Assembly: GCA_011364925.1 (NCBI GenBank) | Contig: RDOA01000003.1 | Location: 72,924-136,923 of the forward strand | Length of the DNA: 64,000 bases | Origin: Promethearchaeota archaeon | GTDB lineage: Archaea; Asgardarchaeota; Lokiarchaeia; Sigyniarchaeales; SOKP01 | Direction of reading: 5' to 3' | In this document: piece by piece, positions 19,363 through 37,934 of the stretch | Layout: the number at the start of each line of letters is the position of its first letter | How positions within the stretch are numbered: the stretch's first letter is position 1 | Program-made: the position numbers and the translations under genes | The notes under the pieces: generated by a model | The model's input: the letters and a program-made list of their open reading frames with translations, nothing else | Told to the model about the DNA's origin: nothing | Database searches by the model: none

Positions 19363-19412
19363 TCAGACTTTTTAAAAAAAAGAATTTGTAAATTTATATT
19401 TGAAAAAGGAAC

Positions 19413-21842: not shown

Positions 21843-23452
21843 AAAAACTCTATGTCCTCTTGAGGTTTTCTAAATCTTTTACGATTTTGATATATTATAA
21901 AAACAGAAACTGCAATGATTGTACTACTAATAACGAGAATAGTTGGCAAGTAATTTAACGATGGTGTAATGGGTGGGAGTGTACAATCATTATCTTCGAT
22001 TACATTTCCTTGACAATTAAATTCAACGATGCATTCATCATTTCCTATTAAACTATTACCCGAAATAGTGTTATAACTACTAGTGTAAAGAACTAATCCC
22101 CACTGGTTGTAATTTGCGGTGTTTCCCGAAATGGTGTTATAAATGCTTTCGATTAGAATTATCCCACATTCTATATTATTAAGTGCGGTGTTTCCTGAGA
22201 GGGTGTTATAACTGCAACCTACTAAACATATCCCACTCCAATTATTGTTATTTACAATGTTTCCTGAAATGATATTATTTTTACTATTTTCAAAACAAAT
22301 CCCATGAAACCTTTTAATGTTATTCGCCGTGTTTTCTGAAATAGTATTATTGTCACAATTGATTAAATATAGCCCACCATAATAGTAATTGTAATTAGCA
22401 ACGTTTCCCGAAATAGTATTATTATTGCTATCCCATATCATTAACCCCGAGCAATTATTAGTATTTGCGGCATTTTCTGAAATATAATTGTTATTACTAT
22501 TGTCTAAGAATATCCCATAATAGGTGTTGTTATTCACGGTGTTTCCCGAAATAACACTATTATTACAATAATGTAATGAAATACCAATAGTAGTATAAGA
22601 TATGTTCAAGTTTGATATTAATGACCCACTGCAGTTGACTAAAATCAATTGTCCAGCATTTGGAAAATCGGTTGATCTTAGATTTTCTTGGTTAGTACAA
22701 TAATATACTGGTTTGCCATTCACTAGATTTGTTGTATCTATCTCAGTTGAAAGTAATATCTCAAGATTTCCAATTATTCTAAACCCACATTCATACATTA
22801 AATTTTCCGTAAAAACATTATTAAAACCTTTAGTTTGGTCCGATAGCCATCCCTGCAACGCAATTCCAGAATAGGTATTACTTATCGTGTTTCCTGAAAT
22901 GGTATTGTTACCACTACCGTATAAAGCTATCCCATAACCATAATTATCTTTTACGATATTTCCTGAAATGATGCTATTATTACAATTCCATAAACGGATT
23001 CCCTTATTGTTATTATTGGAACAATTATTGTTAAGTAGTTGTCCATTATTTACATCAACTAATTTTATTCCAGCATCGTCAAAACCTTCTCCAGAATTAA
23101 AAAGAGTACAATTTTCAATTCGAAAATAAACTTCGGAATTATCAATCCAGATGCAACTTCCCGAATTTTCACCATCTATTTCTAAATCTTCAATAATATA
23201 AGGATCAGAATAAATCCCATTCCCCGTACATATTCCATCTTCTTTAGCAACCGTCCAATTAATACTTGGATTGTCATCATCTATATGAATTTTTCCTGAT
23301 ACTGCTGGGGTTTTTGGTTTTTCGTTGTCAGAATCAATTACCTCATTGTCATCAGGAATAAAACTTGAATTAATATTAATCATTCCCACTAAAGCGAAAA
23401 TGATTCCTAAAGTGATTAAAACTGTTATTATTAATTTTGCATTTGATTTCAT
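21839..23452 (-). CDS. parallel beta-helix (PbH1/NosD-like) repeat surface protein with C-terminal TM anchor
   Basis: Signal anchor, then CTGNGIYSDPYIIEDL, then more than 10 repeats of ISGN.(V/A).NN. The DNA shows a ~66-69-bp periodic string GTGTTTCC(C/T)GAAAT. The C-terminal TM is followed by RKRFRK. Confidence 0.8.
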   Translation of the reverse strand: MKSNAKLIITVLITLGIIFALVGMININSSFIPDDNEVIDSDNEKPKTPAVSGKIHIDDDNPSINWTVAKEDGICTGNGIYSDPYIIEDLEIDGENSGSCIWIDNSEVYFRIENCTLFNSGEGFDDAGIKLVDVNNGQLLNNNCSNNNNKGIRLWNCNNSIISGNIVKDNYGYGIALYGSGNNTISGNTISNTYSGIALQGWLSDQTKGFNNVFTENLMYECGFRIIGNLEILLSTEIDTTNLVNGKPVYYCTNQENLRSTDFPNAGQLILVNCSGSLISNLNISYTTIGISLHYCNNSVISGNTVNNNTYYGIFLDNSNNNYISENAANTNNCSGLMIWDSNNNTISGNVANYNYYYGGLYLINCDNNTISENTANNIKRFHGICFENSKNNIISGNIVNNNNWSGICLVGCSYNTLSGNTALNNIECGIILIESIYNTISGNTANYNQWGLVLYTSSYNTISGNSLIGNDECIVEFNCQGNVIEDNDCTLPPITPSLNYLPTILVISSTIIAVSVFIIYQNRKRFRKPQEDIEFL

Positions 23453-24516: not shown

Positions 24517-25017
24517 CTATTCAGGTATGATTATTGATGTATCTTCCTTAATTCTATCAAGGACAATTTGAGTCTTTACTTCTTCCACTCCCGGAAGGTT
24601 TCGCAACTGTTTAATCAGTTCCATTGAATCTTCGTGATCCATACATTTAGCCATAACAAACAGAGGATATTCACCAGTTACTATGTATCCATATTTTATT
24701 TTTTCCATTTTTTCAATTTTACTCTTAATATCCTCAATTGGTTGCTTAGAGTTCACTCTCAAGGAAGCCATAACCATTTCCCGATATCCTAAATAACGAC
24801 AATCTATTAAAGCAACGTATTTTTTAATTAAAAGTTCTTCTAATTTTTGGACTCGAGCTCTAATAGCTGTCGCACTTTTAGGTTTGTCTAAGCCTAACTT
24901 TTCTGACACTTTTTCGGCAATCTTATTTATAGTTATTTTTCCATCCTGTTGTAATAAGTCTAGGATCTCTCTATCAATCTCATCGATTTCAATTGGTTTA
25001 AAATTATCAGCTGCCAT
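24517..25017 (-). CDS. Lrp/AsnC-family transcriptional regulator
   Basis: N-terminal HTH (IDREILDLLQQDGKITINKIAEKV) plus a C-terminal ligand-binding-like alpha/beta domain. 166 aa. Confidence 0.8.
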   Translation of the reverse strand: MAADNFKPIEIDEIDREILDLLQQDGKITINKIAEKVSEKLGLDKPKSATAIRARVQKLEELLIKKYVALIDCRYLGYREMVMASLRVNSKQPIEDIKSKIEKMEKIKYGYIVTGEYPLFVMAKCMDHEDSMELIKQLRNLPGVEEVKTQIVLDRIKEDTSIIIPE

Positions 25018-25257: not shown

Positions 25258-25482
25258 ATGGCAGATAAAACACTTAATGCAATAGGTAAAAAATGCCCTA
25301 TGCCTGTTCTCATGACCAAAAAAGAGCTAAAAAACATGAGTTCAGGACAAACTCTTGAATTGGTTGTCGATGATAAAGGAGCATTAAAAGATGTTCCGGC
25401 ACTTATCAGTAAAACCGGTGATTCAATACTCGAGACGAAAGAAGGCGAAAACCAGATAACATTTATGATTAAAAAGGCTTAA
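25258..25482 (+). CDS. tusA: TusA/SirA-like sulfur carrier protein
   Basis: CPMPVLMTKKELK (CPxP motif), ~75 aa. The ATG at 25258 is preferred over the TTG at 25249. Confidence 0.8.
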   Translation: MADKTLNAIGKKCPMPVLMTKKELKNMSSGQTLELVVDDKGALKDVPALISKTGDSILETKEGENQITFMIKKA

Positions 25483-25511
25483 ACCAGAGATTAAAACACG
25501 CGTGATGTACA

Positions 25512-25880
25512 ATGACAACCTATTCTTTTTTTATTAGTACGGAACCTTACAAATTTGAAGCAAGCGATTCGTTAATCGAAATGGGTAAAGCTTTAATAAA
25601 GAAGGGACACAGTATAAAGGGTTTATTTTTCTTTGGAACTGGCGTATATAACATCAAGGGCGATATTAGTAGTGGAAGCTCAATAAGAAACATTCCAAAA
25701 AAGCTTGAAGAGTTTGCGACTGAGAACAAGATTCCAGTGGTTGGATGTTCCACTTGGGTAAGTTTGACTGGGTTAAAAGAACCAGAGTTTATTGAAGGGG
25801 CAACGGAAGAGGGATTAGGCGACTTTTCAAATTGGGCTGTAGAATCAGACAAATTAATTGTATTTGGAGCGGGGTGTTAA
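25512..25880 (+). CDS. DsrE/TusD-like sulfur-relay subunit
   Basis: 122 aa with a DsrE-like pattern (FFISTEPY...LFFFGTGVY...VVGCSTW). Confidence 0.65.
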   Translation: MTTYSFFISTEPYKFEASDSLIEMGKALIKKGHSIKGLFFFGTGVYNIKGDISSGSSIRNIPKKLEEFATENKIPVVGCSTWVSLTGLKEPEFIEGATEEGLGDFSNWAVESDKLIVFGAGC

Positions 25881-26254
25881 AAATAACAATAGAATCTGTA
25901 GTAATAATAACTGACCAAGGACCGATTGGTAAAAATTCAGCTTTAGAAGCAGTCCGTATTGGTTCCGGATTCGTAGCACTCGGTGAATTTGTGGACTGCA
26001 AAATGGTATTTACAGGAGACGCAGTTTACTTGCTCAATAAAAACGCAAAACCAGAAGCGGTTGGAATGGATCCATACGACGAGGTTATGGAAATTGCAGA
26101 CTTATCAGACTTAGAATTATACGTTCTTGATCAAGCGTTACAAGACGCTGGAATGAGTGCTGAAGATTTAGTTGAGTACGAAAATTTGAGCATAATTACA
26201 TACGACGAACTAGTCGATTTAATTGAAAATGCAACTACGAGTTTTAGATTTTAA
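25874..26254 (+). CDS. DsrF/TusC-like sulfur-relay subunit (GTG start at 25874, in frame with track ORF 25832..26254)
   Basis: VLKITIESVVIITDQGPIGKNSALEAVRIGSGF... has a typical DsrE/F fold pattern. A start at 25874 gives a 7-nt overlap (GTGTTAA) with the upstream gene instead of 49 nt. Confidence 0.6.
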   Translation: MLKITIESVVIITDQGPIGKNSALEAVRIGSGFVALGEFVDCKMVFTGDAVYLLNKNAKPEAVGMDPYDEVMEIADLSDLELYVLDQALQDAGMSAEDLVEYENLSIITYDELVDLIENATTSFRF

Positions 26255-26270
26255 ACGAGGAGAATAAATA

Positions 26271-26612
26271 ATGGCTGAAAACAGAAAAATATTGTATTTA
26301 TTTGGATATAGTGAAATAACAGGAACACATTTGAAGCGGTTATTACCCATTTTAAAAGCACAGATTGCCAAAGGGTCTCAAATTGGACTCGTGTTGATTC
26401 ACGACGGCGTAATCGGGATTAACAAAAAAGGGAATATCCCCGAGATGATGGGCGAACTACTTAGCTTGAATGTAGCAATTTACGCAATGATACCTGATTT
26501 GCAAGCTCGAGGGATTGCTCAAGAAAGTATTCACGACAAGGTTAAGCCGATTGGATATGACGAACTAATCGATATTATTGATGTAACACCAAAAATAATA
26601 TCTTGGATGTAA
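26271..26612 (+). CDS. DsrH/TusB-like sulfur-relay subunit
   Basis: 113 aa: KILYLFGYS...GLVLIHDGVIG. It is third in DsrE-F-H order, and a GAGGAG Shine-Dalgarno motif precedes the ATG. Confidence 0.6.
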   Translation: MAENRKILYLFGYSEITGTHLKRLLPILKAQIAKGSQIGLVLIHDGVIGINKKGNIPEMMGELLSLNVAIYAMIPDLQARGIAQESIHDKVKPIGYDELIDIIDVTPKIISWM

Positions 26613-26726
26613 AAAGTCCAAGAAATCAAAATAGATTTTTTGAAAATTAAGGTAATAAAATATTACAAAATTTTGGAATATAAAATAATTAGAAATTAAA
26701 AAAACAAAAAAAAGAAGTGAAAAAAT

Positions 26727-27143
26727 ATGGGAGAAACTATTAACTTTATAGTTAAGGACAAGTCATTCGAAAAATTCGCAATGATGATGCTCCTAGGTAC
26801 CACAGCAGACGCGATGGACACTAAAACCAACTTTTTCTTTACATTTTGGGGTTTAAAATTATTAACTAAGAAATTTAAACCGAAAGTCGCTGGTATGCCT
26901 TTTCCAATGAAGGGAATGGCTGCAGGCATGTTCAAGAAAAAGATGGCTACATTTGGAATCGAAGATCCATGGGGTATGATTAAAGACGCTGTCGAGAATG
27001 GAAACATGAAATTATTTCCATGCCAAATGACAATGGATTTAATGGGGATTAAGAGAGAAGATCTGATTGACATTGTTGAAGAGCCTGTGGGTGCCGCAAC
27101 TTTCTTAGAGATGAGTGAAGGTGGAAAAATAGTCTCACTATAA
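26727..27143 (+). CDS. DsrE/DsrF-like family protein (DsrE2/DrsE_2 type)
   Basis: FAMMMLLGTTADAMDTKTNFFFTFWGLKLL resembles the FFTFWG signature of the DrsE_2 group. 138 aa. Confidence 0.5.
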   Translation: MGETINFIVKDKSFEKFAMMMLLGTTADAMDTKTNFFFTFWGLKLLTKKFKPKVAGMPFPMKGMAAGMFKKKMATFGIEDPWGMIKDAVENGNMKLFPCQMTMDLMGIKREDLIDIVEEPVGAATFLEMSEGGKIVSL

Positions 27144-27157
27144 AATATACATTAAAA

Positions 27158-27171
27158 TTTTTTTTTTTTTT
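27158..27171 (+). terminator. T14 tract between the DsrE2-like gene and hdrC
   Basis: 14 consecutive T, starting 15 nt after the stop at 27143. Oligo-T tracts act as archaeal termination signals. Confidence 0.4.
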
Positions 27172-27196
27172 CAAGATAATAAATTGGTGAATGTAA

Positions 27197-27757
27197 ATGT
27201 CTGATGTAGAAGAACAACAAAAAAATAGAGAATTCAAGACGGATGATGATTTCGATACTGAATTCTTTAAGAGAATAGAAAATAGGTCAAACATTATGAA
27301 ATGTATCCAATGTGGAACGTGTACCGCGAGTTGTGAAAGTGGTAGATGGACTGCATTAAAAACTCGTTCGATTGTACGAAAAGTTGTTCTCGGAGATTTA
27401 TCAGTACTGGATGACCCGGATATTTGGCTCTGTACGACCTGTTATCAGTGTTATGAGCGATGTCCACGGGATGTAAAACCAACAGATGTTATTATGGAAT
27501 TGCGAAATTACGCAACCAAACGAGGAAATATCTCACCTAACCATAGAGCTGTTGTTGGTTACTTAAAAAATTTTGGCCACGCAGTACCGATAAATGATGA
27601 AGTAAGAAAAAGACGAGTCGAATTAGGTTTAGAAGAATTACCTCCAACTGCTTTTAAATACAAGCAAGAAGGAGATGATAAAGACTTAAAAAAGATTGAA
27701 AAATATATGTTTGATTTACCTCCCGTTAAGGAGGAAAAAAAAGGAGAGGAGAAATAA
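27197..27757 (+). CDS. hdrC: heterodisulfide reductase subunit C-like (2x[4Fe-4S])
   Basis: CIQCGTCTASCESGR and CTTCYQCYERCPRDV. It sits immediately upstream of hdrB. Confidence 0.8.
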   Translation: MSDVEEQQKNREFKTDDDFDTEFFKRIENRSNIMKCIQCGTCTASCESGRWTALKTRSIVRKVVLGDLSVLDDPDIWLCTTCYQCYERCPRDVKPTDVIMELRNYATKRGNISPNHRAVVGYLKNFGHAVPINDEVRKRRVELGLEELPPTAFKYKQEGDDKDLKKIEKYMFDLPPVKEEKKGEEK

Positions 27758-27760
27758 ATA

Positions 27761-28675
27761 ATGGTTAAAGAACATACATTTGCTTTTTTCCTCGGATGTA
27801 TCATGCCCAATAGATATCCTGCGATTGAGAAAGCAACTAAATTCGTGATGGAGAAGCTTGGATATGAAATATTGGAAATGGAGAGGGCTACTTGCTGTCC
27901 AGCTCCAGGAGTATTCCGTTCATTCAATAAATTTGATTGGATGGTTGCGGGAGCTAGAAATTTATGCATTGCTGAACAATTAGATGCTGATATTCTTACT
28001 GTTTGTAATGGATGTTTTGGTACACTCCAAGAAATTAACAAACATCTTAAAGAAAACGAGGAACATCGAATACAAGTAAATGAGAAACTGAAACTCCTCG
28101 GAGACTACGAATTCAAGGGGATAATTGACGTTCGTCATGTTGCCGAAGTACTTGGATACGAAGTTGGACCTTGGGGGATAGAAGACCATATAGTAAGAAA
28201 GCTGAATTTGAAAGCTGCAATTCATTACGGGTGCCACTTTCTAAAACCAACCAGAATTAGAGAAATTGAGAGTTCAGAAGGACCTACAATAATCGAAGAT
28301 TTCGTTGAAGCGTTAGGAATAGAGTCCGTTCGGTTCAAAGAGCAACTTACTTGCTGTGGAGCGGGTGGTGGCGTAAAAGCTTATTCTGGCGATGCGAGCA
28401 TGACCATATTCGGGGAGAAAATGAAAAATATTGATGAAGTTAAACCTGATATTATATTAGATATCTGTCCATTCTGTCACTTACAGTTTGAGACAGGTCA
28501 AGATTATCTCAACAAAAATAAGGAATGTAATTACGATTATCCAGTGTTCCATCTTTCGCAAGTTTTAGCATATTGTATGGGAATGGATGTAGACTTTATT
28601 GGCCTTCAGTATCAAATGATGGGCAGGGACTTTATTTTTGGTGGAGAAGATGTTAAAAAAGAGGAGGCAATTTAA
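27761..28675 (+). CDS. hdrB: heterodisulfide reductase subunit B-like (two CCG domains)
   Basis: ATCCPAPG and LTCCGAGGG CCG motifs plus CPFCHLQF. 304 aa. Confidence 0.85.
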   Translation: MVKEHTFAFFLGCIMPNRYPAIEKATKFVMEKLGYEILEMERATCCPAPGVFRSFNKFDWMVAGARNLCIAEQLDADILTVCNGCFGTLQEINKHLKENEEHRIQVNEKLKLLGDYEFKGIIDVRHVAEVLGYEVGPWGIEDHIVRKLNLKAAIHYGCHFLKPTRIREIESSEGPTIIEDFVEALGIESVRFKEQLTCCGAGGGVKAYSGDASMTIFGEKMKNIDEVKPDIILDICPFCHLQFETGQDYLNKNKECNYDYPVFHLSQVLAYCMGMDVDFIGLQYQMMGRDFIFGGEDVKKEEAI

Positions 28676-30715
28676 ATGACTGTTGAAGAAAAAGTCAAAA
28701 AAACTGACGAAATTAAGGGCGGGGCAGATTCTAAAGAAGCAGAAGAAGAGCCTAGAATTGGTGTTTTTATTTGCCACTGTGGACACAATATTGCTGGTAC
28801 GGTTGATGTTGCCAAAGTGGCAGAATACGCCAAAACTTTACCTAACGTGGTTAAGGCCGAACATTATATGTTCATGTGTAGCAAACCGGGAGTTCAAATG
28901 CTTAAAGATTCGATTGAAGAACTTGGAGTTAATAGAACAGTTGTGGCTTCATGCTCAAAAAATCAACATGGGAGAACCTTTGCTAACGCGATCCAAGAAG
29001 AGGGATTAAATAAACATAGACACCAACAAGTTAACATAAGAGAATTTAATAGTTGGGTTCATCAAAAAGAGAAAGATAAAGCCACAGAAAAAGCGAAAAA
29101 GTTAGTAGAAGCGGGCGTTAACCGAGCAAGGAAATTAGAGGATGTTGAAACTCGCAGAATTGCGACTACTAAAGCTGCTCTGGTTATTGGTGCTGGAATT
29201 GCGGGACTTCGCGCTAGTTATGATTTAGCTGAATTAGGGATACCAGTTTACTTAATAGAGAGGTTATCTACAATTGGAGGGCACATGACTCAATTAAATA
29301 AAACGTTCCCGACACTTGAATGCCCTCAGTGTTCCATAAGTCCATTAACTAATGGAGTTGCGAACCATCCGCTAGTAGAACTTTATACAAACGCTCAGAT
29401 TAAAAATGTTGGTGGCTCTATGGGGAATTTCGAAGTGGAAGTCGAGATTAAACCTCGATATGTTAAGGATAATTGTACTTCATGCGGTGAATGTTCAGCT
29501 CATTGTCCTGTTGAAGTGCCAAGCGAGTGGGATAGTGGAATGTCTATACGTAAAGCGATATATAAGGCTTATCCACAAGCGATACCTGCGACTTTTGTCA
29601 GAGATAAGAAGAACTGTATTGAATGCAACACCTGTGTTAACATATGTCCGGTCAAAGCCGTTGATTTTTCGATGGAGACTGAGACCAAAACGTTCAAAGT
29701 CGGCTCTATTGTTGTAGCTGCGGGTTATGACGAATACGATCCTTCAGAAATCGAACCTTATCACTACGGACAAAAAGGATTCGAAGATGTCATTACACAG
29801 TTGAAATTGGAACGAATGTTAGCTCCAGGATCACTTACAAACAGTCAAGTTTTAAGACCTTCAGATGCAAAAATTCCGAAGAGTGTTGTAATGATCCAGT
29901 GTGTTGGGAGTCGAAATGACCAAGTTGGAAACGAATATTGCACAGGAGTCTGTTGTAAGTTTGCGATTAAGAACGCAAGAATTGTTAAAGAGATGTATCC
30001 TGACACTGACGTGACTATTTGTTATATTGATGTGCGAACTCCAGGGCTCAACTTTGAGGAGTTATATAAATCGGCTCAGGAAGTTGGAGTGAGATTTATC
30101 AGAGGGCGCCCATCAGAGATTGTGAGAGATCCGATATCTGGGAATCTAAAGGTAATCGTTGAAGATACTTTAAGTATGACTCCATTACAGTTGAAAGCTG
30201 ACATGGTGGTATTAAGTGCTGCGATGGTTCCACCTGAAGGAATTGGACCACTTGGGTCAAAACTTCAAGTATTAAGGTCAAAAGAAGGATTTTTGAAGGA
30301 ATTTCATATCAAAATGAACCCTACATTAAGTAGCAAAGGTGGAATTTTTATAGCTGGTGCGATTCAAGGTCCTAAGGATATTTCTGAATCGGTGGCTCAA
30401 GCAGGGAATGCCGCTGCGATCGCTGCTGCACCGTTGGTAAAAGGTTATATCGAAAAAGAAATGCTTATTCCTTCAGTTGATCTTGACCTATGCGTTAGAT
30501 GTGGATTATGCAAAACTGTTTGCGCTCCAGCTGCAATACAAATTAACGACGATGGAACGCCGATGGTGAACGAAGTCGCTTGCAAGTCATGTGGTATGTG
30601 TATGCCTGCATGTCCTACAGGAGCAATACAATTATTAAACTTTAGCGATAAACAACTATTAGATGAAATTATACCAATAGCAGGCGGAGGTGCTGTATGC
30701 GAAGATGAGCTGTGA
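28676..30715 (+). CDS. hdrA: heterodisulfide reductase subunit A (FAD, multiple [4Fe-4S])
   Basis: N-terminal IGVFICHCGHNIAG, FAD fold ALVIGAGIAGLRASYDLAELG, and ferredoxin motifs CTSCGECSAHCP, CIECNTCVNICP, CVRCGLCKTVC and CKSCGMCMPACP. Confidence 0.9.
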   Translation: MTVEEKVKKTDEIKGGADSKEAEEEPRIGVFICHCGHNIAGTVDVAKVAEYAKTLPNVVKAEHYMFMCSKPGVQMLKDSIEELGVNRTVVASCSKNQHGRTFANAIQEEGLNKHRHQQVNIREFNSWVHQKEKDKATEKAKKLVEAGVNRARKLEDVETRRIATTKAALVIGAGIAGLRASYDLAELGIPVYLIERLSTIGGHMTQLNKTFPTLECPQCSISPLTNGVANHPLVELYTNAQIKNVGGSMGNFEVEVEIKPRYVKDNCTSCGECSAHCPVEVPSEWDSGMSIRKAIYKAYPQAIPATFVRDKKNCIECNTCVNICPVKAVDFSMETETKTFKVGSIVVAAGYDEYDPSEIEPYHYGQKGFEDVITQLKLERMLAPGSLTNSQVLRPSDAKIPKSVVMIQCVGSRNDQVGNEYCTGVCCKFAIKNARIVKEMYPDTDVTICYIDVRTPGLNFEELYKSAQEVGVRFIRGRPSEIVRDPISGNLKVIVEDTLSMTPLQLKADMVVLSAAMVPPEGIGPLGSKLQVLRSKEGFLKEFHIKMNPTLSSKGGIFIAGAIQGPKDISESVAQAGNAAAIAAAPLVKGYIEKEMLIPSVDLDLCVRCGLCKTVCAPAAIQINDDGTPMVNEVACKSCGMCMPACPTGAIQLLNFSDKQLLDEIIPIAGGGAVCEDEL

Positions 30716-31154
30716 AGATATAGAGCCAGAAGTAATGGAAAAGATCCAAGATATTGTTGTTTTTATGTGTAACGAATGTGGACAAGGATCGGCAAATACT
30801 GCTGGTGTAGCAAGAATGGCGTATAATCCCGCAATCCGAATCGTTCGAGTCCAATGCACGGGTCAAGTAGGACCTATTCAAATAATGGATGCTTTGAATA
30901 ACGGTGCTGATGCGGTTGCTTGCGTTGGTTGTTGTCTTGGAGCGTGTCATTTCTTTAACGGAAATATTTTATCGATGCATAGAATCAAACTGCTGAAGAA
31001 AGTATTTAAAGAATTAGGGTATAGCGATCAGTTTGTTAATCAATACACATCACGAGCCGCGGAAGGAGAAACAGCTGTAGGAGATTTTGAGGATTTAGTG
31101 ATACGATTGTCTAATGCAATTAGAGAGGAGGGGACAATAAAAGATGGATGTTAG
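30705..31154 (+). CDS. mvhD: MvhD-like (methyl-viologen-reducing hydrogenase delta subunit family) [2Fe-2S] protein
   Basis: VVFMCNECGQGSANTAG...VRVQCTGQV...GADAVACVGC. The ATG at 30705 follows GGAGGTG (30687-30693) and overlaps the hdrA stop. Confidence 0.8.
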   Translation: MSCEDIEPEVMEKIQDIVVFMCNECGQGSANTAGVARMAYNPAIRIVRVQCTGQVGPIQIMDALNNGADAVACVGCCLGACHFFNGNILSMHRIKLLKKVFKELGYSDQFVNQYTSRAAEGETAVGDFEDLVIRLSNAIREEGTIKDGC

Positions 31155-32379
31155 AATTTTTCAATTTAATGGCTGCAATAAATGTTTCAACGAGACGATT
31201 CTCCTTAACGGTGAATCAAAATACAAGATTGAATTCATTGAAGATCCGAAGAATTGGAAAGAGATGAAAACTGATGTTTCTGTTATAACAGGATACCTTT
31301 TACCTGAAGATAAAGATACTTTAGAAAAAATTAAATCAAATTCGAAACGAGTCGTTGGTTACGGAAATTGTACTACGATGGGAGGAATATTTGCTTTAGC
31401 TAATCAAAGAGGCTATGAAGTATCCCCATTGAGTAGTTTCATCGAAGAAACAGAGAAAGTAAATGGTTGTCTGGGAGAAATTGAAGAATTGAGTGTAGCG
31501 ATTAACAGTGAGGCGGCTCCTAAATTACAGAATTTATGTGCGGTTTGCGCAAGAGAAACGACTTGCGATTACTTAGAAAGTGTTCATCGTCAAATAGAAT
31601 TAGAAGACGAGACAACATGTTTTAACGATCTCGGATATCTTTGTAATGGTTTTGTTGCTAAAGAATGTAAAGAGCGATGTATCGATTATAACGCACCTTG
31701 TAGAGGATGTAAACCAATTATAGATCGTTCAGGGATTAGAATGTTAGGAATGTTCGGTACTCTAATGGGCAACATTGAGGTTGCGACAGAGCATTCGGAA
31801 TTAGGCGCTACTGATAAGCTTGCAGATCGAGACGATGATATTACAGATAGTTTACCTGATGTTTTAGGCAATTTCTTTAGATTTACTCTATCGACTTCAG
31901 GACTTCCCAGAGGTAGAATTCCTTCGTCAGGAAATATACTTAACGATGTCTTTACTGGAAGATTAATAGAAGAGTTACCTCTGATTTCTGGGTTATTAGG
32001 TGGGAATCGTTCAATTTCCCTAACGCTAAAAATTATAGAAACATACGAGACCGCGAATAGCATTGAAGTAAGTGAACAAACAAAAAAATATCGTAAAGAA
32101 TTGTTAGATTTGGAAAGCCAGTTGCAGGAAGCTATTAAAAGCAAAGATCCTAAGCAGTATAAAAAGATTACAGACGAAATCAGAAAAATAGGCGGAAATA
32201 TGAATTTATCAAACGTATATTTCGGAGGATTCAAAGCTCAGATCGACGATAAAGACAATTTTGAAGATTATAAAGCCCACGTTTTTGATGTGGTTGAAGG
32301 AACCTATAAGAATGGTTCAGTAGAATTTACGATTGATCCAATCGGTATTGTAAAAGAAATAAAAATTAAAGAGGGATAA
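31144..32379 (+). CDS. MvhG-like [NiFe]-hydrogenase small-subunit homolog with a ~135-aa extra C-terminal region
   Basis: FNGCNKC, GYGNCTTMGGIFALAN, NLCAVCARE, YLCNGFVAKECKERCIDYNAPCRGC and GNFFRFTLS parallel my recollection of MvhG cluster-binding motifs, in the same order. No large-subunit gene is adjacent. Confidence 0.65.
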   Translation: MDVRIFQFNGCNKCFNETILLNGESKYKIEFIEDPKNWKEMKTDVSVITGYLLPEDKDTLEKIKSNSKRVVGYGNCTTMGGIFALANQRGYEVSPLSSFIEETEKVNGCLGEIEELSVAINSEAAPKLQNLCAVCARETTCDYLESVHRQIELEDETTCFNDLGYLCNGFVAKECKERCIDYNAPCRGCKPIIDRSGIRMLGMFGTLMGNIEVATEHSELGATDKLADRDDDITDSLPDVLGNFFRFTLSTSGLPRGRIPSSGNILNDVFTGRLIEELPLISGLLGGNRSISLTLKIIETYETANSIEVSEQTKKYRKELLDLESQLQEAIKSKDPKQYKKITDEIRKIGGNMNLSNVYFGGFKAQIDDKDNFEDYKAHVFDVVEGTYKNGSVEFTIDPIGIVKEIKIKEG

Positions 32380-32381
32380 AC

Positions 32382-34844
32382 ATGAGTTTCGAATTATTAA
32401 GGAGCGAAATTATTGACGCAGGTTTATGTCAAGGTTGCGGTTTATGTGCTGGTTCGTGCAAACACATTAATATGGAAATTGCCAGGCCGGTATTAAAAGA
32501 CTATTGCATCCTTGAAAGAGATGGTGAAGATTGTGGAAAATGTTACCAATCTTGTCCACAAGTGATCCAGAAAAAGTTTAAGGAAAAACAACCATTAGCC
32601 ATATATTCGTTAAGAACAAAAAATCCTGAAATTTTAGCTAAAGCTTCTAATGGAGGATTTGTCACAACTATCGCTAAAGAACTGTTAGAAAGTGAATCTC
32701 TGAAAGAGATTGTGATGGTTCAAGAAGATGACGAAAAACCAAAAGCAGAGATAGTAACGAATCCCGATGAAGTTATTAAAAAAGCAGGAGTCGTCTATGG
32801 TCGTTCTGGGGTACTTGAGCGTTTAATAGATGTTACTGGAGAAACCTTTGACCCTATTGGAATAGTGGGAGTACCCTGTGAAATGAGAGGAGCTGCGGAG
32901 ATCGAAGAAGAAATGAATAGAGAAATCTTGAAGATCGGGCTTTTCTGTAGTTCCCAAATGCGAACAGCTGAGACTGATAAAGGTTTAGTCTGTTCTCCAT
33001 GCTGTAACGGTTGCCCCTCAGGTGTTAATGCTCAAGGGTACGTGTCATTAATTCGTCAGGGAAAATACCAAGAAGCCGTGGATTTAATACGAGAAAATAA
33101 TCCCTTACCGTCCATCTGTGGAAGAATTTGTACAAACGAATGTGAATACGGATGCACATTAATTGGAGACGATCATCCTGTTGCAATCAGAGAACTAAAA
33201 AAATTCGTAACAGAATGGGAAATGGAACATGGGAAGAAGAAGAAGAAAAAGGTTGCTAAAAAGAATGGTAAAAAAGTGGCTATAATTGGAGCGGGACCAG
33301 CGGGATTAACCGCTGCGCATTACTTAGCAAATAGAGGATATTCACCAACTATTTTTGAAAAGACAGATCAAACAGGAGGTATGCTTCGATTTGGAGTCCC
33401 ACAATTCAGATTACCTAATTATGTATTAGATTACGATGTAGAATCAATAACAGATGCAGGTGTTGAGCTCGTTCTTAACAAACCTTTAGGACCTGATATG
33501 ACGATCAATGATTTAAAAAAGGAAGGTTTTGAAGCAATTTTTATTGCAACTGGTCAGTATAAACCAAGAACTTTGCACTTAGAAGGAGAAGACTTACCTA
33601 ATGTTTACGTAGCTATTAACTTCCTTATGGACAGGAAGTATAGATATTGGGAAAATAAAGAAGAATTTAATGGTAAAACAATTGGCATCATTGGGGGAGG
33701 TCCGGTTGCTGTAGATGTTGCTCAAACTGCGCTGAGACTTGGAGCGGAAAAAGTTCACCTCGTTGACATCATGAACGAAAAAGAACTCGAATTAGTCCTA
33801 AAAGATATCCCTGAAAATGAATACGAATATATGAAGTATCATTTTGCCACATCCACTTCTAAAATAACGCAAAACAAAGACGGAAAGTTAGTTTTGAACT
33901 GCTACAATATCGAATGGGGTGCTCCTGACAAGACGGGTAGACGACCTCTAAATAAAGTTGAGGGTTCTGATTACGAGATACCCATTGATGTTATTATAAT
34001 GGCAGTAGGACAAGCTGTTGACTTTGATTTAATCGATGTAGCAACCGAAAATAAGATTGAAAAAGAGCGAAATAGGATCAAGATAAATCCGGTAACGTTT
34101 GAAACAAGTATTCCCGGAGTGTTTGCTGGAGGTGATATCGTTTCAAACTCTAAAGCTGTCGCGATTGCTGGTATTGCTCATGGGAAAGAAGCTGCGATTT
34201 CAATAGACAGATATTTGAACGGTGAGGATTTAGAAGAAGGCAGAAATTATCGAAGTCAAATGTTTTTTACTGGTCCTCGTAAACCACCTAAAGATTACTC
34301 TTTAAAACCAGAAAATTTAGAGGATGCTACTGAAGAAATACAGTGGACATTCGATGAAATTGATGAAATGTTCAACGAAGATATGGCTTTAAGGGAGGCA
34401 AGGAGATGTTTGAGTTGTAACCACTTCTGTTCCCATTGTCAAGATTTTCCTGCCATATATTCTGACGTTACGGCAGGTGAAGTTGGTTCAGAAAAAGGTT
34501 ATACAACGGTAGTTGCTTGGACAGAAAAAGGTAAAGAACTTGTTGATAACGCGATCGCGAAGGGATTATTTGACCAAGGAAAGGTTAACGAAGGAGAGTT
34601 AAAAACGGCAATAAACCTTAAATCGAAACGAGAACTTATGAATTTCGAAAAAACTCCACGAACTCAGGTATTAGACTACGTAAAAATCCAAGGACCAAGT
34701 ACTATTAGCGATATAGCTCGAAATACTGGACTTGAGCAGAAAAAGGTCAGGTATGAAGCACTTCGATTAGTTCAGTTAATGGAATTTGAAATGAAAGCAG
34801 ATCCTGATATGACCGAACCGCTGTTTTCTATTGTATGTGATTAA
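32382..34844 (+). CDS. fusion oxidoreductase: 2x[4Fe-4S] + FrhB/FdhB-like domain interrupted by a GltD-like FAD/NAD(P) module + C-terminal wHTH-like tail
   Basis: CQGCGLCAGSC/CGKCYQSCP; FrhB-like NGGFVTTIAKELL and GVPCEMRGA...IGLFCS; GltD-like NPLPSICGRICTNECEYGC, KVAIIGAGPAGLTAAHYLANRGY and IGIIGGGPVAVDVAQTA; a return to FrhB-like SDVTAGEVGSEKGYTTVVAWTEKGKELV; tail STISDIARNTGLEQKKVRYEALRLVQL. Confidence 0.7.
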   Translation: MSFELLRSEIIDAGLCQGCGLCAGSCKHINMEIARPVLKDYCILERDGEDCGKCYQSCPQVIQKKFKEKQPLAIYSLRTKNPEILAKASNGGFVTTIAKELLESESLKEIVMVQEDDEKPKAEIVTNPDEVIKKAGVVYGRSGVLERLIDVTGETFDPIGIVGVPCEMRGAAEIEEEMNREILKIGLFCSSQMRTAETDKGLVCSPCCNGCPSGVNAQGYVSLIRQGKYQEAVDLIRENNPLPSICGRICTNECEYGCTLIGDDHPVAIRELKKFVTEWEMEHGKKKKKKVAKKNGKKVAIIGAGPAGLTAAHYLANRGYSPTIFEKTDQTGGMLRFGVPQFRLPNYVLDYDVESITDAGVELVLNKPLGPDMTINDLKKEGFEAIFIATGQYKPRTLHLEGEDLPNVYVAINFLMDRKYRYWENKEEFNGKTIGIIGGGPVAVDVAQTALRLGAEKVHLVDIMNEKELELVLKDIPENEYEYMKYHFATSTSKITQNKDGKLVLNCYNIEWGAPDKTGRRPLNKVEGSDYEIPIDVIIMAVGQAVDFDLIDVATENKIEKERNRIKINPVTFETSIPGVFAGGDIVSNSKAVAIAGIAHGKEAAISIDRYLNGEDLEEGRNYRSQMFFTGPRKPPKDYSLKPENLEDATEEIQWTFDEIDEMFNEDMALREARRCLSCNHFCSHCQDFPAIYSDVTAGEVGSEKGYTTVVAWTEKGKELVDNAIAKGLFDQGKVNEGELKTAINLKSKRELMNFEKTPRTQVLDYVKIQGPSTISDIARNTGLEQKKVRYEALRLVQLMEFEMKADPDMTEPLFSIVCD

Positions 34845-34879
34845 ATTTAAACCAAAATAAAATCAAGGAGAGAAAAAAT

Positions 34880-35119
34880 ATGAATTTTGACCAAGAATTA
34901 AATGTCTGCGGATTAGTCTGTCCCGTTCCAGCGCTTAAAACCAAAAAACAATTAATGAAGATGCGCCCTGGAACCGTGTTAAAGGTAATAACAGACTATA
35001 AACCTGCAAGTGAATCTGTTCCAAGAGATTTAGCTAAACAAACTAAGCACAAACACTTAGGAACAGAATTTCTCGAAGACGAAGAACAGTGGTATATGTA
35101 TTTTGAAGCTGTAAAATAG
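34880..35119 (+). CDS. second TusA/SirA-like sulfur carrier protein
   Basis: CGLVCPVPALKTKKQLMKM (CPxP motif). 79 aa, and a GGAGAG Shine-Dalgarno motif lies upstream. Confidence 0.75.
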   Translation: MNFDQELNVCGLVCPVPALKTKKQLMKMRPGTVLKVITDYKPASESVPRDLAKQTKHKHLGTEFLEDEEQWYMYFEAVK

Positions 35120-35335: not shown

Positions 35336-36928
35336 ATGGCAAAACCTAATATTATCTTAATATTAAATGACGACATGGGATATTCAGATTTAGGTTGCTA
35401 TGGAGGAGAAGTTCAAACTCCTAATTTAGATAATTTAGCAAAAAACGGGATTAGATTTACTAATTTCTATAATACGGCTCGGTGTTCTCCTTCACGGGCT
35501 TCGCTATTGACAGGACTACATCCTCATCAGACGGGTATAGGAGTTTTGGTTAACAATGATGGTCCAGAAGGATATGCCGGTTCGTTAAACAATAAATGTG
35601 TTACTATCGCAGAAGTCTTGAGAGAAGATGGATACAAGACATATGTAAGTGGTAAATGGCACGTCTCGAATTCTCCTTACAAAGAAGCTGATAGCTGGCC
35701 AACTAAACGCGGATTTGACCATCATTATGGCATCCTCCAAGGAGCTACTGATTATTTCTATCCTATTAAGTTAAGAAGAGATGGAAAAAACATTGAAGAG
35801 GAAGCGAGAAACGATCCTAATTATTATCTAACAGATGCCATTAGCGACCAAGCCGTAGCTTTCCTTAAGGAGCACCATCAAAATTTTCCAGAAGACCCAT
35901 ACTTCCTATATATTGCGTACACTGCCCCTCATTGGCCGCTTCACGCTAAAGAATCGGATATCAAAAAATATGAAGGACGGTTTATCGTAGGATGGGACAT
36001 TCTTCGCGAAGAAAGACTCCAAAGAATGAAAAAATTAGGTCTTTGTGATGAAAATTTAAAGCTTTCTGAACGCGATCCCACCCAACGAGCATGGGATTTA
36101 ACTAAAAACAAAGAGTGGGAAGCTCGTAGAATGGCTGTATATACTGCTCAAATTGACAATATGGACCAAGGCATAGGTCGAATTATTGCGGAAGTTAAAA
36201 AACAAAATCAGTTGGAGAATACTGTGATCGTTTTTCTTTCGGATAATGGTGGTTGTGCGGAACCTATGGGTCGTGCCATGAAAAAATTGACAAATTTAGA
36301 TGAGTGGAAGAGTGGTCGTATAAAAACCAAGGATGGTCGTGATATTCTTTATGGGAATAGGAAGTCCGTTATTCCAGGACCCGCTAACACTTACGCAAGC
36401 TATGGTACAGCTTGGGCAAATCTTTCAAATACCCCTTTCCGGAAGTATAAACATTGGGTACATGAAGGTGGAATTGCCACTCCATTAATTATTCATTGGC
36501 CTAATGGCATAAAGTTTAAAGGGAAGATCTGTCATCAACCAGGTCAACTCCCCGATATCATGGCGACAATTATTGAAATTACACATTCTCCTTATCCTGA
36601 GAAATACAATGGAGACAAAATTCTACCTTTGGAAGGACAAAGCTTAGCTTTAAGCTTTTCTAGTACCACCTCTATTGAACGAACACTATTTTTTGAGCAC
36701 GAAGGGAACGCAGCGGTAATACAAGGAAACTGGAAATTAGTTAAAGAATATCCCTATTCATGGGAATTGTATGATAGAGAATCTGACCGAACTGAACTAG
36801 ATAATATTATCTCGAGATATCCCGTAAAAGCTCGAGAATTGGAATTAGCATTTCACCAATGGGCTAAACGCTGTGGCGTTATTCCATGGGATTTATACCT
36901 TACAAATAACAGATTTATCCAATATTAA
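35336..36928 (+). CDS. arylsulfatase (Cys-type formylglycine sulfatase family)
   Basis: LNDDMGYSDLGCYG and the CSPSRASLLTG (C-x-P-x-R) motif. The ATG at 35336 is preferred over the TTG at 35327. Confidence 0.85.
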   Translation: MAKPNIILILNDDMGYSDLGCYGGEVQTPNLDNLAKNGIRFTNFYNTARCSPSRASLLTGLHPHQTGIGVLVNNDGPEGYAGSLNNKCVTIAEVLREDGYKTYVSGKWHVSNSPYKEADSWPTKRGFDHHYGILQGATDYFYPIKLRRDGKNIEEEARNDPNYYLTDAISDQAVAFLKEHHQNFPEDPYFLYIAYTAPHWPLHAKESDIKKYEGRFIVGWDILREERLQRMKKLGLCDENLKLSERDPTQRAWDLTKNKEWEARRMAVYTAQIDNMDQGIGRIIAEVKKQNQLENTVIVFLSDNGGCAEPMGRAMKKLTNLDEWKSGRIKTKDGRDILYGNRKSVIPGPANTYASYGTAWANLSNTPFRKYKHWVHEGGIATPLIIHWPNGIKFKGKICHQPGQLPDIMATIIEITHSPYPEKYNGDKILPLEGQSLALSFSSTTSIERTLFFEHEGNAAVIQGNWKLVKEYPYSWELYDRESDRTELDNIISRYPVKARELELAFHQWAKRCGVIPWDLYLTNNRFIQY

Positions 36929-37034
36929 TTAGGTACTAAAATTGTAAATAACACTAAATTCATTATTTATTCACATTCTTAAATTATAAATTCAAATGTA
37001 ATTTTATAAAATTAATAGCGCTAATGTGATAAAC

Positions 37035-37889
37035 ATGAATTTTGAGACCATTAAGTTTGAATTGCAAGAAAACGGAATTGGAATACTGACGCTTAATCGT
37101 CCTGAGAAACTAAACGCTATGTCCTTTCAAATGATTAAGGATTTACACGCGTTATTCGACTCTTTAATGGTAAATTTAGACTGTCGCGTTCTTATCTTAA
37201 AAGCAGAAGGGAGAGCGTTTTGTGCTGGATTAGATTTGAAAGAATCGACAATTTTACAATCGAAAAAGAAACCTCCAGAGTTAAAAGAGAAGTTTCATTT
37301 TCTAAACGCTCCCGATAAAGATATAATAAAGGCAAAATTGTACGCTCAATGGTATACCAGCAACATTATTGTGAAAATGCGTAAAATTAATCAACCAATC
37401 ATTGCCTTAGTTCAAGGGGCAGCATCTGGAGCCGGATTCGCTTTCTCTTTAGCAGCAGACATTAGAATTGCCAGTAAAAACGCAAGGTTCAATAACGCAT
37501 TTATCAATGTTGGGTTTTCCGGCTCAGACTTAGGATCTAGCTATTATCTTCCGCGACTTATAGGGATGTCAAGAGCGGCAGAGATTCTATACACGGGAAG
37601 ATTTGTAGACGCTTATGAAGCTGAAAGGATTGGGCTCGTATTGAATGTCGTAGAAGAAGCGGAATTGCTCGATACTGCAATTAAATTAGCAGAAAACATG
37701 TTACATAAAAGCCCATTAGGGTTGCGTATGACTAAGCAAACGCTCAATTTATCCCTTGATTCTCCAAGCCTAGAAACCATTCTTCAGTTAGAAAACCGAG
37801 CACAGATGCTTTGCTCTGCGTCTGATGATATTATGGAAGGAATTCAATCTTTTTTTGAAAAAAGAGAGCCAAAATATCCGTTAACCTGA
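37035..37889 (+). CDS. enoyl-CoA hydratase/isomerase (crotonase) family protein
   Basis: LNRPEKLNA, GRAFCAGLDL, VQGAASGAGFAFSLAADIRIA. The ATG at 37035 is preferred over the GTG at 37026. Confidence 0.85.
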   Translation: MNFETIKFELQENGIGILTLNRPEKLNAMSFQMIKDLHALFDSLMVNLDCRVLILKAEGRAFCAGLDLKESTILQSKKKPPELKEKFHFLNAPDKDIIKAKLYAQWYTSNIIVKMRKINQPIIALVQGAASGAGFAFSLAADIRIASKNARFNNAFINVGFSGSDLGSSYYLPRLIGMSRAAEILYTGRFVDAYEAERIGLVLNVVEEAELLDTAIKLAENMLHKSPLGLRMTKQTLNLSLDSPSLETILQLENRAQMLCSASDDIMEGIQSFFEKREPKYPLT

Positions 37890-37934
37890 AAATCTAGATT
37901 ATAGTAAAGAAATAGAAAAATAAAAGTGAGAAAG

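Follow-up and report, generated by a model that had tools for sequence, protein, structure and literature searches.

A 64-kb stretch of lokiarchaeal DNA (contig RDOA01000003.1; this whole stretch is called the window) carries a cluster of 12 plus-strand open reading frames (ORFs; 25258-35119) in which genes for cysteine-based sulfur carriers of the TusA and DsrE families adjoin genes for a soluble, methanogen-type heterodisulfide reductase (Hdr) with a predicted hydrogenase-free electron-input arm. The cluster probably consists of two operons, and this pair is co-located, co-inherited, and specific to Lokiarchaeia. The component families are known, and sulfur carriers feeding an Hdr-type enzyme are known in principle; the combination and the donor arm are new. 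We infer from the gene linkage that the HdrB subunit may act on a carrier-bound persulfide or polysulfide. We give a little less than an even chance to the reading that a hydrogenase-free bifurcating Hdr, analogous to the Elp-Hdr and Flx-Hdr systems, acts on carrier-bound sulfane sulfur.

Conservation of the cluster and its probable division into two units

The domain assignments of all 12 genes passed the Pfam gathering thresholds. The gene count, the coordinates, and the tight spacing given in a preliminary description of this DNA all held, with two larger gaps. Intergenic spacing runs from -7 to +29 nucleotides (nt) between TusA1 and DsrH and from -11 to +35 nt between HdrC and TusA2; the wider gaps are 114 nt 5' of the DsrE2-like gene and 53 nt, including a run of 14 T residues (T14), 5' of HdrC. 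The three junction strings quoted earlier were all found in the sequence: GTGTTAA, a 7-nt overlap of DsrE and DsrF; TAAATG, with a 0-nt gap, between HdrB and HdrA; and ATGAGCTGTGA, an 11-nt overlap of HdrA and MvhD with the MvhD ATG inside. GGAGG-like motifs precede most of the genes, in agreement with the Shine-Dalgarno motifs reported before, and the Lrp/AsnC-family regulator gene described as divergent and upstream is present at 24517-25017 on the minus strand (Pfam HTH_AsnC-type and AsnC_trans_reg). The window has a G+C content of ~33%, and homologues of the cluster proteins are labelled Promethearchaeota or Lokiarchaeota. A scan of the cluster against Rfam gave no match. A scan with a bacterial model, which is not applicable to archaea, gave terminator-like sites near or below the shuffled expectation and promoter-like sites ~2 standard deviations above it.

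Synteny was assessed by contig look-ups with exact proteins and by one metagenome scan, in which an alignment of the DsrE2-like proteins served as the query and all window proteins were then compared by tblastn; a contig scan with the MvhG-like protein as the query gave only three loci. The order of the 12 genes is identical in the close relatives L001, L004, L005 (Loki_b32), and L007 (63-94% identity) and, in L006, up to the contig end, which falls inside the FrhG-like gene. It is also kept in the diverged loci L013 (the complete genome of cultured Candidatus Lokiarchaeum ossiferum, CP163304.1), L014 (a locus with a protein named Candidatus Sigynarchaeum springense), L015, and L025, whose proteins are 28-50% (DsrE/F/H), 64-71% (HdrA/B/C), and 66-73% (TusA2) identical to those of the window. 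In the metagenome scan with tblastn, HdrC adjoins the DsrE2-like gene in all 11 loci that have DsrEFH upstream and sequence downstream. The Lrp/AsnC gene accompanies the cluster in most relatives and lies divergently upstream in L001 and L004 to L007. Since the genes flanking the cluster vary from locus to locus, the 12-gene block itself is the conserved unit. The arrangement is more than chance, as the order recurs in every related locus examined. The linkage of sulfur-carrier genes to Hdr pointed out in the preliminary description is stable across deep divergence within Lokiarchaeia, and comparison of hdr neighbourhoods found tus/dsrE and hdr genes syntenic at loci other than this one. The neighbouring sulfatase gene (35336-36928), earlier counted as a further sulfur-related gene, fared differently: it is absent beside the cluster in all related loci with a recovered downstream flank and is ruled out as a part of the system.

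At the search sensitivity used, no DsrE2-Hdr link was found outside Lokiarchaeia. In 71 more distant DsrE2 loci from metagenomes (28-39% identity), TusA lies within 1 kb in 35 and an HdrB homologue in none; two of these loci look like bacterial clusters of sHdr, the Hdr type of sulfur oxidisers. Four lokiarchaeal contigs (L020, L021, L022, and L024) hold a TusA-DsrE2 pair only, 61-82% identical to TusA1 and 66-74% identical to the DsrE2-like protein. The pair in L020 (2479-3206) is without DsrEFH, has no Hdr within 3.2 kb downstream, and is followed by a gene for a tetratricopeptide repeat (TPR) protein. The nearest non-Asgard DsrE2-like relatives (33-35% identity) occur in Bathyarchaeia (L011, 10001-12712), in a DrsE_2-TusA-cysteine desulfurase (IscS)-NifU_N (IscU)-ferredoxin cluster that looks like a biosynthetic sulfur relay; ThiS, ThiI, and Thi4 genes lie nearby. 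A solitary DsrE2-like gene (43-46% identity) is present in Helarchaeota (L009, 10001-10417), where genes for the alpha and gamma subunits of methyl-coenzyme M reductase (MCR; 18205-20417) are found ~8 kb away. The TusA-DsrE2 pair is widespread; the insertion of DsrEFH and the coupling to a methanogen-type Hdr were seen here only in Lokiarchaeia. On two short Joint Genome Institute contigs, whose TusA is labelled Hodarchaeales (L016, 1-1315; L017, 1-812), a TusA2 homologue (70% identity) has ahead of it just the C-terminal portion of the FrhG-like protein and, in L016 only, an HdrA fragment; neither contig has FrhB::GltD. Either the cluster has decayed or been rearranged in these contigs, or they are artefacts of assembly.

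The preliminary description regarded the carrier and Hdr genes as fused into one supercluster, which overstates their union. Oligo-T tracts are archaeal terminators, and the T14 tract (27158-27171, plus strand), which lies between the DsrE2-like gene and HdrC, is a probable terminator and operon boundary. T-rich sequence is found at the same junction in L004 (T9 and T5) and L005 (T13 and T4); in L013 and L015, an Lrp/AsnC gene sits at this junction on the same strand, and in L025, it is occupied by a PIN-domain gene. Because the poly-T tract is conserved and Lrp or PIN genes are inserted at the junction, the locus is probably two adjacent transcription units, whose adjacency and association with Lrp/AsnC have been maintained. 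Operon 1 would comprise tusA1-dsrE-dsrF-dsrH and the dsrE2-like gene, and operon 2 would comprise hdrC-hdrB-hdrA-mvhD-frhG/mvhG-like-frhB::gltD-tusA2. An A-rich tract (26696-26716) and T14 flank the DsrE2-like gene and are up to 93% complementary over 14 nt, with similar A-rich/T-rich bracketing in L004 and L005. This pair could reflect long-range RNA pairing or merely the composition of an untranslated region and a terminator.

Sulfur carriers, Hdr core, and electron-input arm

The first gene of operon 1 encodes TusA1 (25258-25482; Pfam TusA, 79.5 bits), a single-Cys sulfur carrier with the motif GKKCPMP. It falls below the NCBIfam TusA equivalog cut-off, and its Cys is invariant among orthologues. 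The next three genes encode a DsrE/TusD-like subunit (25512-25880; Pfam DsrE), a DsrF/TusC-like subunit (25874-26254; Pfam DsrE), whose GTG start overlaps the DsrE stop and whose exact start is uncertain, and a DsrH/TusB-like subunit (26271-26612; Pfam DsrH, 38.3 bits). The best Pfam and NCBIfam matches of this trio are TusD, TusC, and TusB, in that order, with NCBIfam scores below the cut-offs (TIGR03012, 48.6 versus 89; TIGR03010, 37 versus 94; TIGR03011, 47.7 versus 49.2; the TusC/DsrF match of the DsrF-like protein is likewise below cut-off). Among solved structures, each member is closest to its Allochromatium vinosum counterpart, in line with the full DsrEFH-like trio plus DsrE2-like protein described before. 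The DsrE-like protein matches A. vinosum DsrE (2HY5_A) at 5.5e-9 and Escherichia coli TusD less well, at 6e-4; the DsrF-like protein matches DsrF (2HY5_B) at 1e-4; and the DsrH-like protein gives a weak match to 2HY5_C (E = 0.019). Active-site Cys79 of the DsrE-like protein aligns to the Cys of the VVCVAAA segment in 2HY5_A and is invariant in seven orthologues, including those only 39-48% identical. With this Cys and the closer A. vinosum match, the DsrE-like protein has neither lost the Cys nor grouped with TusBCD only. The DsrF-like protein has a single Cys, which is not invariant in orthologues. The DsrH-like protein of the window has no Cys, and none is conserved in its orthologues.

The last gene of operon 1 encodes a DsrE2B-like soluble sulfur transferase (26727-27143), which matches PF13686 (DrsE_2) with 81 bits against a gathering score of 25 and the NCBIfam DsrE2 equivalog NF047629 with 59 bits against a cut-off of 210. 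Its best structural match is 2QS7 (1.9e-18, with the Cys aligned), classed as DsrE2B (PMC11094781), and its Cys98 is invariant in 21 diverse relatives. The subfamily is narrow: only two cluster representatives among 1.84 billion match at <1e-30 and 31 at <1e-10.

TusA2 (34880-35119; Pfam TusA, 62.6 bits) closes operon 2, its gene beginning 35 nt after the preceding one within the tight Hdr operon, so that the Hdr genes are bracketed by two TusA genes as previously recognized. Across loci in which DsrH is 28-79% identical, TusA2 is 66-94% identical; its conservation equals that of the Hdr core and far exceeds that of TusA1 or DsrEFH. Such conservation fits a protein that would dock on the Hdr complex. 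Of 115 full-length homologues, 113 have the Cys of the CPxP motif. Four residues before it (position -4), the window protein has a second Cys, part of a CGLVCP motif that is invariant in five close orthologues, and we considered TusA2 as a two-cysteine, DsrC-like redox substrate. This role was rejected because the extra Cys occurs in only 56 of the 115 homologues, the others having S, Q, T, R, K, or A at this position. Both TusA proteins score about equally on models of YedF (selenium) and of TusA, and all selenium-family matches are below cut-off. In sum, the active-site Cys is kept in the orthologues of TusA1, TusA2, DsrE, and DsrE2, a check that the preliminary description had proposed.

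The Hdr core begins with HdrC (27197-27757; two [4Fe-4S] motifs; Pfam Fer4 dicluster families), which scores 181.7 bits against TIGR03290 (cut-off, 160). The catalytic subunit HdrB (27761-28675) scores 362.2 bits against TIGR03288 (cut-off, 345) and carries two CCG motifs (noncubane [4Fe-4S] sites; Pfam CCG in two stretches, 123 bits), both of which are intact in comparison with methanogen HdrB chains (2e-89 to 2e-70). HdrA (28676-30715), at 679 amino acids (aa), is assigned by Pfam and by alignment to 5ODC_A, an HdrA of the Methanothermococcus thermolithotrophicus/Methanothermobacter wolfeii type, with which residues 24-665 align end to end (1.2e-192). It is predicted to be a full-length flavoprotein of the bifurcating type, with the N-terminal FeS domain, the FAD domain, and the inserted and C-terminal ferredoxin domains: it keeps the equivalents of K409 and E356, the key residues of bifurcating type I HdrA (PMC12054007). 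The best NCBIfam model for HdrA is HdrA2, below cut-off. MvhD (30705-31154; Pfam FlpD, 107.5 bits), the [2Fe-2S] connector, matches NCBIfam VhuD and the C-terminal part of HdrA2, and HdrA and MvhD jointly span the Methanosarcina HdrA2 model (1-637 and 644-770 of 777). The strict NCBIfam equivalogs are not reached (NF041778 HdrA, 625 versus 1400; NF041780 HdrB, 152 versus 450; NF041779 HdrC, 78 versus 350; NF040770 HdrA2, 742 versus 1100). Across the most divergent loci, HdrB and HdrC remain 64-70% identical. These matches bear out the methanogen-type HdrABC plus MvhD of the preliminary description, and we class the enzyme, on its predicted proteins, as a methanogen-type, soluble Hdr with a full-length HdrA. 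Membership in the sHdr type was considered and rejected, as the cluster has a single HdrB, a single HdrC, a long HdrA, and no LbpA; the arrangement is unlike that of bacterial sulfur oxidisers, as noted before. When the remaining ORFs of the window were scanned with Pfam down to a length of 120 aa, no methanogenesis gene, MCR included, came to light, in agreement with the earlier statement for this DNA, and the flanks of orthologous clusters held none either.

The electron-input arm starts with an iron-sulfur (FeS) protein of 411 aa (31144-32379; Pfam Oxidored_q6, 41 bits) that resembles the small subunit of [NiFe]-hydrogenases and had been called MvhG-like. The homology is correct: its first ~256 residues are homologous to MvhG/VhuG (chains 9SW2_E and 5ODC_E), although the similarity is weak (1e-11 against the PDB; 41 bits on VhuG versus a cut-off of 450), and a C-terminal extension of ~155 aa is family-specific. 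The 40 homologues compared share 13 invariant Cys residues, a number that would suffice for three [4Fe-4S] clusters. Among 362 homologues, the best 120 are at least 70% identical, and the named ones are all Asgard-labelled. An AlphaFold2 model from a shallow alignment of 40 sequences (at least 70% identity) was too poor to judge (mean predicted local distance difference test score, 47; predicted template modelling score, 0.39). The hydrogenase large subunit (MvhA) was found neither in the cluster nor in the gene tables of related loci, and the MvhG/FrhG-like gene is always followed by the gene for FrhB::GltD. The donor module, as predicted from these genes, is hydrogenase-free and consists of the FrhG/MvhG-like FeS protein and FrhB::GltD; with no large subunit, the electron donor is probably NADPH and/or reduced coenzyme F420 (F420H2).

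FrhB::GltD (32382-34844; 820 aa) is an FrhB/FpoF-like flavo-FeS protein into which a GltD/NfnB-type NAD(P)H module is inserted at about residues 190-680. Pfam places FrhB_N at residues 75-146 and FrhB_C at 666-733 and also matches Fer4_20 and Pyr_redox_2; NCBIfam places FpoF at 9-192 and FrhB at 682-749. PDB matches are NfnA, NfnB, and GltD for the centre (1e-90 to 1e-52) and FrhB together with the N-terminal half of Fsr for the ends. GltD insertions are documented as NAD(P)H entry points in Hdr systems (PMC12054007). The second Rossmann motif, GGGPVA (GxGxxA), suggests NADPH as the substrate by a published rule that relates this motif to NADPH preference (PMC12054007). F420 is plausible in Lokiarchaeia, because their archaeal Wood-Ljungdahl pathway has F420-dependent steps (PMC10667645). 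The last ~80 residues of FrhB::GltD (34599-34844) give sub-threshold winged-helix matches (HTH_5, E = 0.02; HVO_A0114, E = 0.012). It is possible that they form a DNA-binding or docking tail, which would be unusual on a redox enzyme.

A possible reaction and its alternatives

The products of the two operons can be arranged into the following scheme. Operon 1 would form a cytoplasmic relay that passes sulfane sulfur as cysteine persulfide over TusA1 (CPxP Cys), DsrE of a DsrEFH-like assembly (Cys79), and the DsrE2B-like protein (Cys98). The products of operon 2 are predicted to form a soluble, flavin-based electron-bifurcating Hdr complex of the methanogen type with a hydrogenase-free input arm. 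NADPH would enter at the GltD/NfnB module and/or F420H2 at the FrhB part, and the electrons would travel through FrhB::GltD, the small-subunit-like protein, and MvhD to the HdrA flavin. From there, one electron would go uphill to ferredoxin and the second via HdrC to the two noncubane clusters of HdrB. The oxidant at HdrB would be sulfane sulfur on a carrier Cys, with TusA2, supplied through TusA1, DsrEFH, and the DsrE2-like protein, as the likeliest direct partner; sulfide would be set free and the carrier thiol restored. The complex might also run in reverse, loading the carriers from sulfide. The narrower proposal that the lokiarchaeal HdrABC was re-purposed, its "heterodisulfide" being a protein-bound persulfide or polysulfide on TusA2 that is fed by the TusA1-DsrEFH-DsrE2 relay and reduced with NADPH or F420H2, is tentative and, in our estimate, rather doubtful.

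Several points weigh against a persulfide-reducing Hdr. What ties the carriers to HdrB is gene neighbourhood only, and the two halves are probably separate transcripts, given the conserved T-tract and the genes inserted at the junction. HdrB and HdrC score as equivalogs of the coenzyme B-coenzyme M (CoB-CoM) heterodisulfide reductase, so a small-molecule heterodisulfide remains a natural substrate. The reduction of S0 or polysulfide to sulfide, at about -270 mV, lies far below that of CoM-S-S-CoB, at about -140 mV. With a persulfide as the acceptor, bifurcation from NADPH to ferredoxin would be marginal if helped by neither a higher protein-persulfide potential nor the concentrations, and on standard potentials the reverse direction would be energetically easier. 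The DsrH of sulfur oxidisers has a conserved Cys that the DsrH-like protein lacks, and neither the cluster nor the flanking sequence examined yielded a DsrC/TusE acceptor. TusA-DsrE2 pairs without a nearby Hdr (L020), or with IscS and IscU in Bathyarchaeia, indicate that the two carriers also serve other purposes, probably biosynthetic ones.

Some of these points favour a simpler alternative, in which Hdr reduces a small (hetero)disulfide, either CoM-S-S-CoB, as a legacy of an ancestor that metabolised alkanes or methane, or a different pair of low-molecular-weight thiols, and the TusA/DsrE proteins are an independent or co-regulated biosynthetic relay supplying sulfur for, e.g., a thiol cofactor, Fe-S clusters, or thiolated molecules. 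HdrB and HdrC do pass the NCBIfam CoB-CoM Hdr cut-offs, and the E values against methanogen chains reach 1e-192 for HdrA and 2e-89 for HdrB. The T-tract and the genes inserted at the junction set a boundary between two operons. DsrE2 relatives stand with TusA-IscS-IscU in Bathyarchaeia, other Lokiarchaeia have TusA-DsrE2 pairs that lack an Hdr nearby, and MCR is present in Helarchaeota, an Asgard group. However, this alternative leaves aside an adjacency that has outlasted both the divergence of DsrE/F/H to 28-50% identity and insertions at the junction, as well as a second TusA, which lies among the closely spaced genes of the Hdr operon and equals the Hdr core in conservation. With no MCR or other methanogenesis gene in the window or the flanks of orthologous clusters, we consider it unlikely, if a serious contender. 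It is also conceivable that the enzyme runs in an assimilatory direction, HdrB oxidising sulfide to a carrier persulfide and the complex passing electrons from both sulfide and reduced ferredoxin to NADP+ or F420 (confurcation). The locus would in that case encode a "persulfide synthase" by which sulfide from the environment is activated for biosynthesis, in place of a cysteine desulfurase. Besides the easier thermodynamics, as reasoned from standard potentials, this proposal has in its favour that characterised TusA, DsrEFH, and DsrE2 proteins pass sulfur on to acceptors (PMC11094781), that the nearest non-Asgard DsrE2-like relatives sit with IscS-IscU-ferredoxin, and that a regulator of the Lrp/AsnC family, typical of amino-acid or nutrient control, is associated with the cluster in most relatives. 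Yet no downstream acceptor (ThiI, MoaD/ThiS, or an Fe-S scaffold) was found in or beside the lokiarchaeal cluster, fermentative Lokiarchaeia need electron sinks rather than more reductant (PMC10667645), and direction is not readable from sequence; we regard assimilatory operation, and with it the persulfide synthase, as quite unlikely.

Two further proposals concern the donor and the role of HdrBC. In a 2025 preprint on the cultured Nerearchaeum marumarumayae (Promethearchaeaceae), a figure legend independently has Hdr use H2, supplied by a group 3c hydrogenase, to reduce persulfides carried by TusA and DsrE (10.1101/2025.07.22.663070). With H2 as the donor, the MvhG-like protein would bind a group 3c [NiFe] large subunit from another locus to give a conventional Mvh-Hdr that reduces sulfite or thiosulfate-derived persulfides. 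The small-subunit-like protein does appear to keep all Cys residues of the proximal, medial, and distal clusters. The H2 donor assumed there, however, is not encoded at the lokiarchaeal locus, and no cluster with a gene table contains a large subunit; the small-subunit homologue always precedes FrhB::GltD, carries the ~155-aa family-specific extension, and resembles MvhG weakly (1e-11 against the PDB; 41 bits versus the VhuG cut-off of 450), so that H2 as the donor appears most improbable. Hardly more probable is that Hdr is a mere ferredoxin:F420:NADP redox balancer with vestigial HdrBC and unrelated carriers, or that the carriers traffic selenium. An FrhB-HdrA-MvhD model has been proposed for Korarchaeia (PMC10667645), Asgard archaea use selenocysteine (PMC13188914), and the two TusA proteins score about as well on YedF as on TusA models, but with 64-70% identity of HdrB and HdrC between the most divergent loci, and with both CCG motifs intact in the HdrB of the window, the pattern is not that of vestigial subunits, and all selenium-family matches lie below their cut-offs.

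In a full-text literature search for TusA/DsrE together with Asgard or Lokiarchaeota terms, only the Nerearchaeum preprint makes the link between carriers and Hdr; the passages of it that were retrieved describe neither the cluster, its conservation, and its two-operon structure nor the FrhG-like/FrhB::GltD arm (10.1101/2025.07.22.663070). The conservation of soluble HdrABC-MvhD in archaea that lack MCR has been called "puzzling" as to its role (PMC10667645). The cluster offers a testable candidate, with four cysteine carriers as substrate delivery and a defined hydrogenase-free donor arm, in a lineage that has cultured members, Ca. L. ossiferum among them as a carrier of the cluster. The presence of sulfur carriers beside a hydrogenase-free Hdr points to protein-bound sulfur as a possible Hdr substrate in archaea that produce no methane. 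If true, a reaction of this kind would be the first case of flavin-based electron bifurcation (or confurcation) to depend on a persulfide, and it would explain why Hdr is retained in MCR-less Asgard archaea and tie their energy metabolism directly to sediment sulfur chemistry. With real coupling, Asgard energy metabolism would gain a bifurcating reaction that depends on sulfur, which would bear on hydrogen-sulfur syntrophy models of the origin of eukaryotes, and the known Hdr donor arms (Mvh, Fdh, Elp, and Flx) would be extended by a new type that combines a hydrogenase small subunit with FrhB::GltD.

Other features of the window and comparison with known systems

Upstream of the cluster, 2782-6089 and 10171-12901 hold two copies of an arrangement typical of Asgard genomes, a TPR gene followed by a gene for a 184-aa small GTPase of the Ras/Roc family (5535-6089 and 12347-12901); in the first copy, an unassigned 250-aa ORF (4580-5332) lies between the two genes. 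Two NosD/beta-helix proteins are encoded upstream of the Lrp gene on the minus strand (19413-23452), with a 187-aa ORF without a family match between them, and a NosD-like gene is also found upstream of Lrp in L004, L005, and L006 and not in L007. Downstream of the cluster, tandem enoyl-CoA hydratase paralogues and an acyl-CoA dehydrogenase (37026-38780 and 43222-44451) suggest a neighbourhood for fatty-acid or amino-acid degradation that is unrelated to it. A 1,399-aa ORF on the minus strand (48333-52532) has no Pfam match at an E value of 0.001 or below, and several other window ORFs of 168-469 aa are without a family match (e.g., 57568-58800, 59653-60888, and 60909-62318).

The closest characterised analogue of the input arm is Elp-Hdr (ElpABC-HdrABC) of Methanothermobacter marburgensis (PMC12350162). 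In Elp-Hdr and Fdh-Hdr, MvhD, an FrhB/FdhB-type flavoprotein, and a catalytically dead scaffold replace hydrogenase as the donor to HdrABC; in the M. marburgensis complex, MvhD-like ElpC, FdhB/FrhB-like ElpB, and the dead scaffold ElpA feed F420H2 electrons to HdrABC (PMC12350162). The lokiarchaeal cluster shares with Elp-Hdr and Fdh-Hdr (FdhAB-MvhD-HdrABC, 7BKB) the HdrABC core, an MvhD-type connector, and an FrhB/FdhB-type entry for hydride. As judged from its genes, it would also share the replacement of a hydrogenase by an FeS scaffold without catalytic activity, which would make its bifurcation hydrogenase-free. The scaffolds differ in origin: that of Elp is a truncated FdhA, whereas the lokiarchaeal one derives from a [NiFe]-hydrogenase small subunit, and Pfam found no molybdopterin or FdhA-like domain in the cluster. 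Unlike in the Elp and Fdh systems, the lokiarchaeal FrhB homologue contains an inserted GltD/NfnB NAD(P)H module, and the cluster, with no MCR in view, has its ties to TusA/DsrE carriers and not to Fmd/Fwd for CO2 reduction.

With MvhADG-HdrABC (5ODC), the cluster has in common close homologues of HdrA, HdrB, HdrC, and MvhD (HdrA, 1e-192; HdrB, ~1e-89) and the gene order hdrCBA-mvhD followed by the small-subunit homologue. It differs from that system in that MvhA is absent, the MvhG homologue is highly diverged and extended, and CoM-S-S-CoB would not be the expected substrate. FlxABCD-HdrABC of Desulfovibrio and other anaerobic bacteria is reportedly NADH-dependent, with DsrC proposed as its protein disulfide substrate. 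The lokiarchaeal system would likewise be a pyridine-nucleotide-fed HdrABC with an MvhD-like subunit and, by inference, a protein-bound sulfur substrate, whereas its donor subunits are of unrelated architecture, its proposed partner is TusA/DsrE rather than DsrC, and its lineage is archaeal.

On the carrier side, the trio resembles DsrEFH (A. vinosum, 2HY5) and TusBCD (E. coli, 2D1P) in its three paralogous subunits, in their E-F-H order, and in the DsrE Cys that is kept (Cys78 in A. vinosum). It departs from them in scoring below the NCBIfam equivalog cut-offs and in its DsrH-like protein, which is without the conserved DsrH Cys (Cys20 in A. vinosum); the gene tables of the lokiarchaeal cluster and the flanks examined revealed no DsrC/TusE acceptor and no DsrAB or MnmA context. 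The sHdr-LbpA systems, which are always accompanied by TusA and DsrE carriers, offer the parallel of a CCG-bearing Hdr-type enzyme genetically linked to such carriers (PMC11094781). They have duplicated HdrB and HdrC in the arrangement shdrC1B1AHC2B2 (or B3), a short non-bifurcating HdrA, sHdrH, and obligatory LbpA with lipoate-ligase, none of which the lokiarchaeal cluster has; LbpA and lipoate-ligase domains are absent from the Pfam matches of the cluster and the window and from the gene tables of related loci. What the lokiarchaeal cluster encodes instead is a full-length HdrA together with MvhD, a DsrEFH trio, and an arm for reductant input. Its DsrE2-like protein is closest to the Sulfolobales DsrE2B structure 2QS7 and thereby recalls the DsrE3A-DsrE2B-TusA set of Metallosphaera cuprina (PMC4175335).

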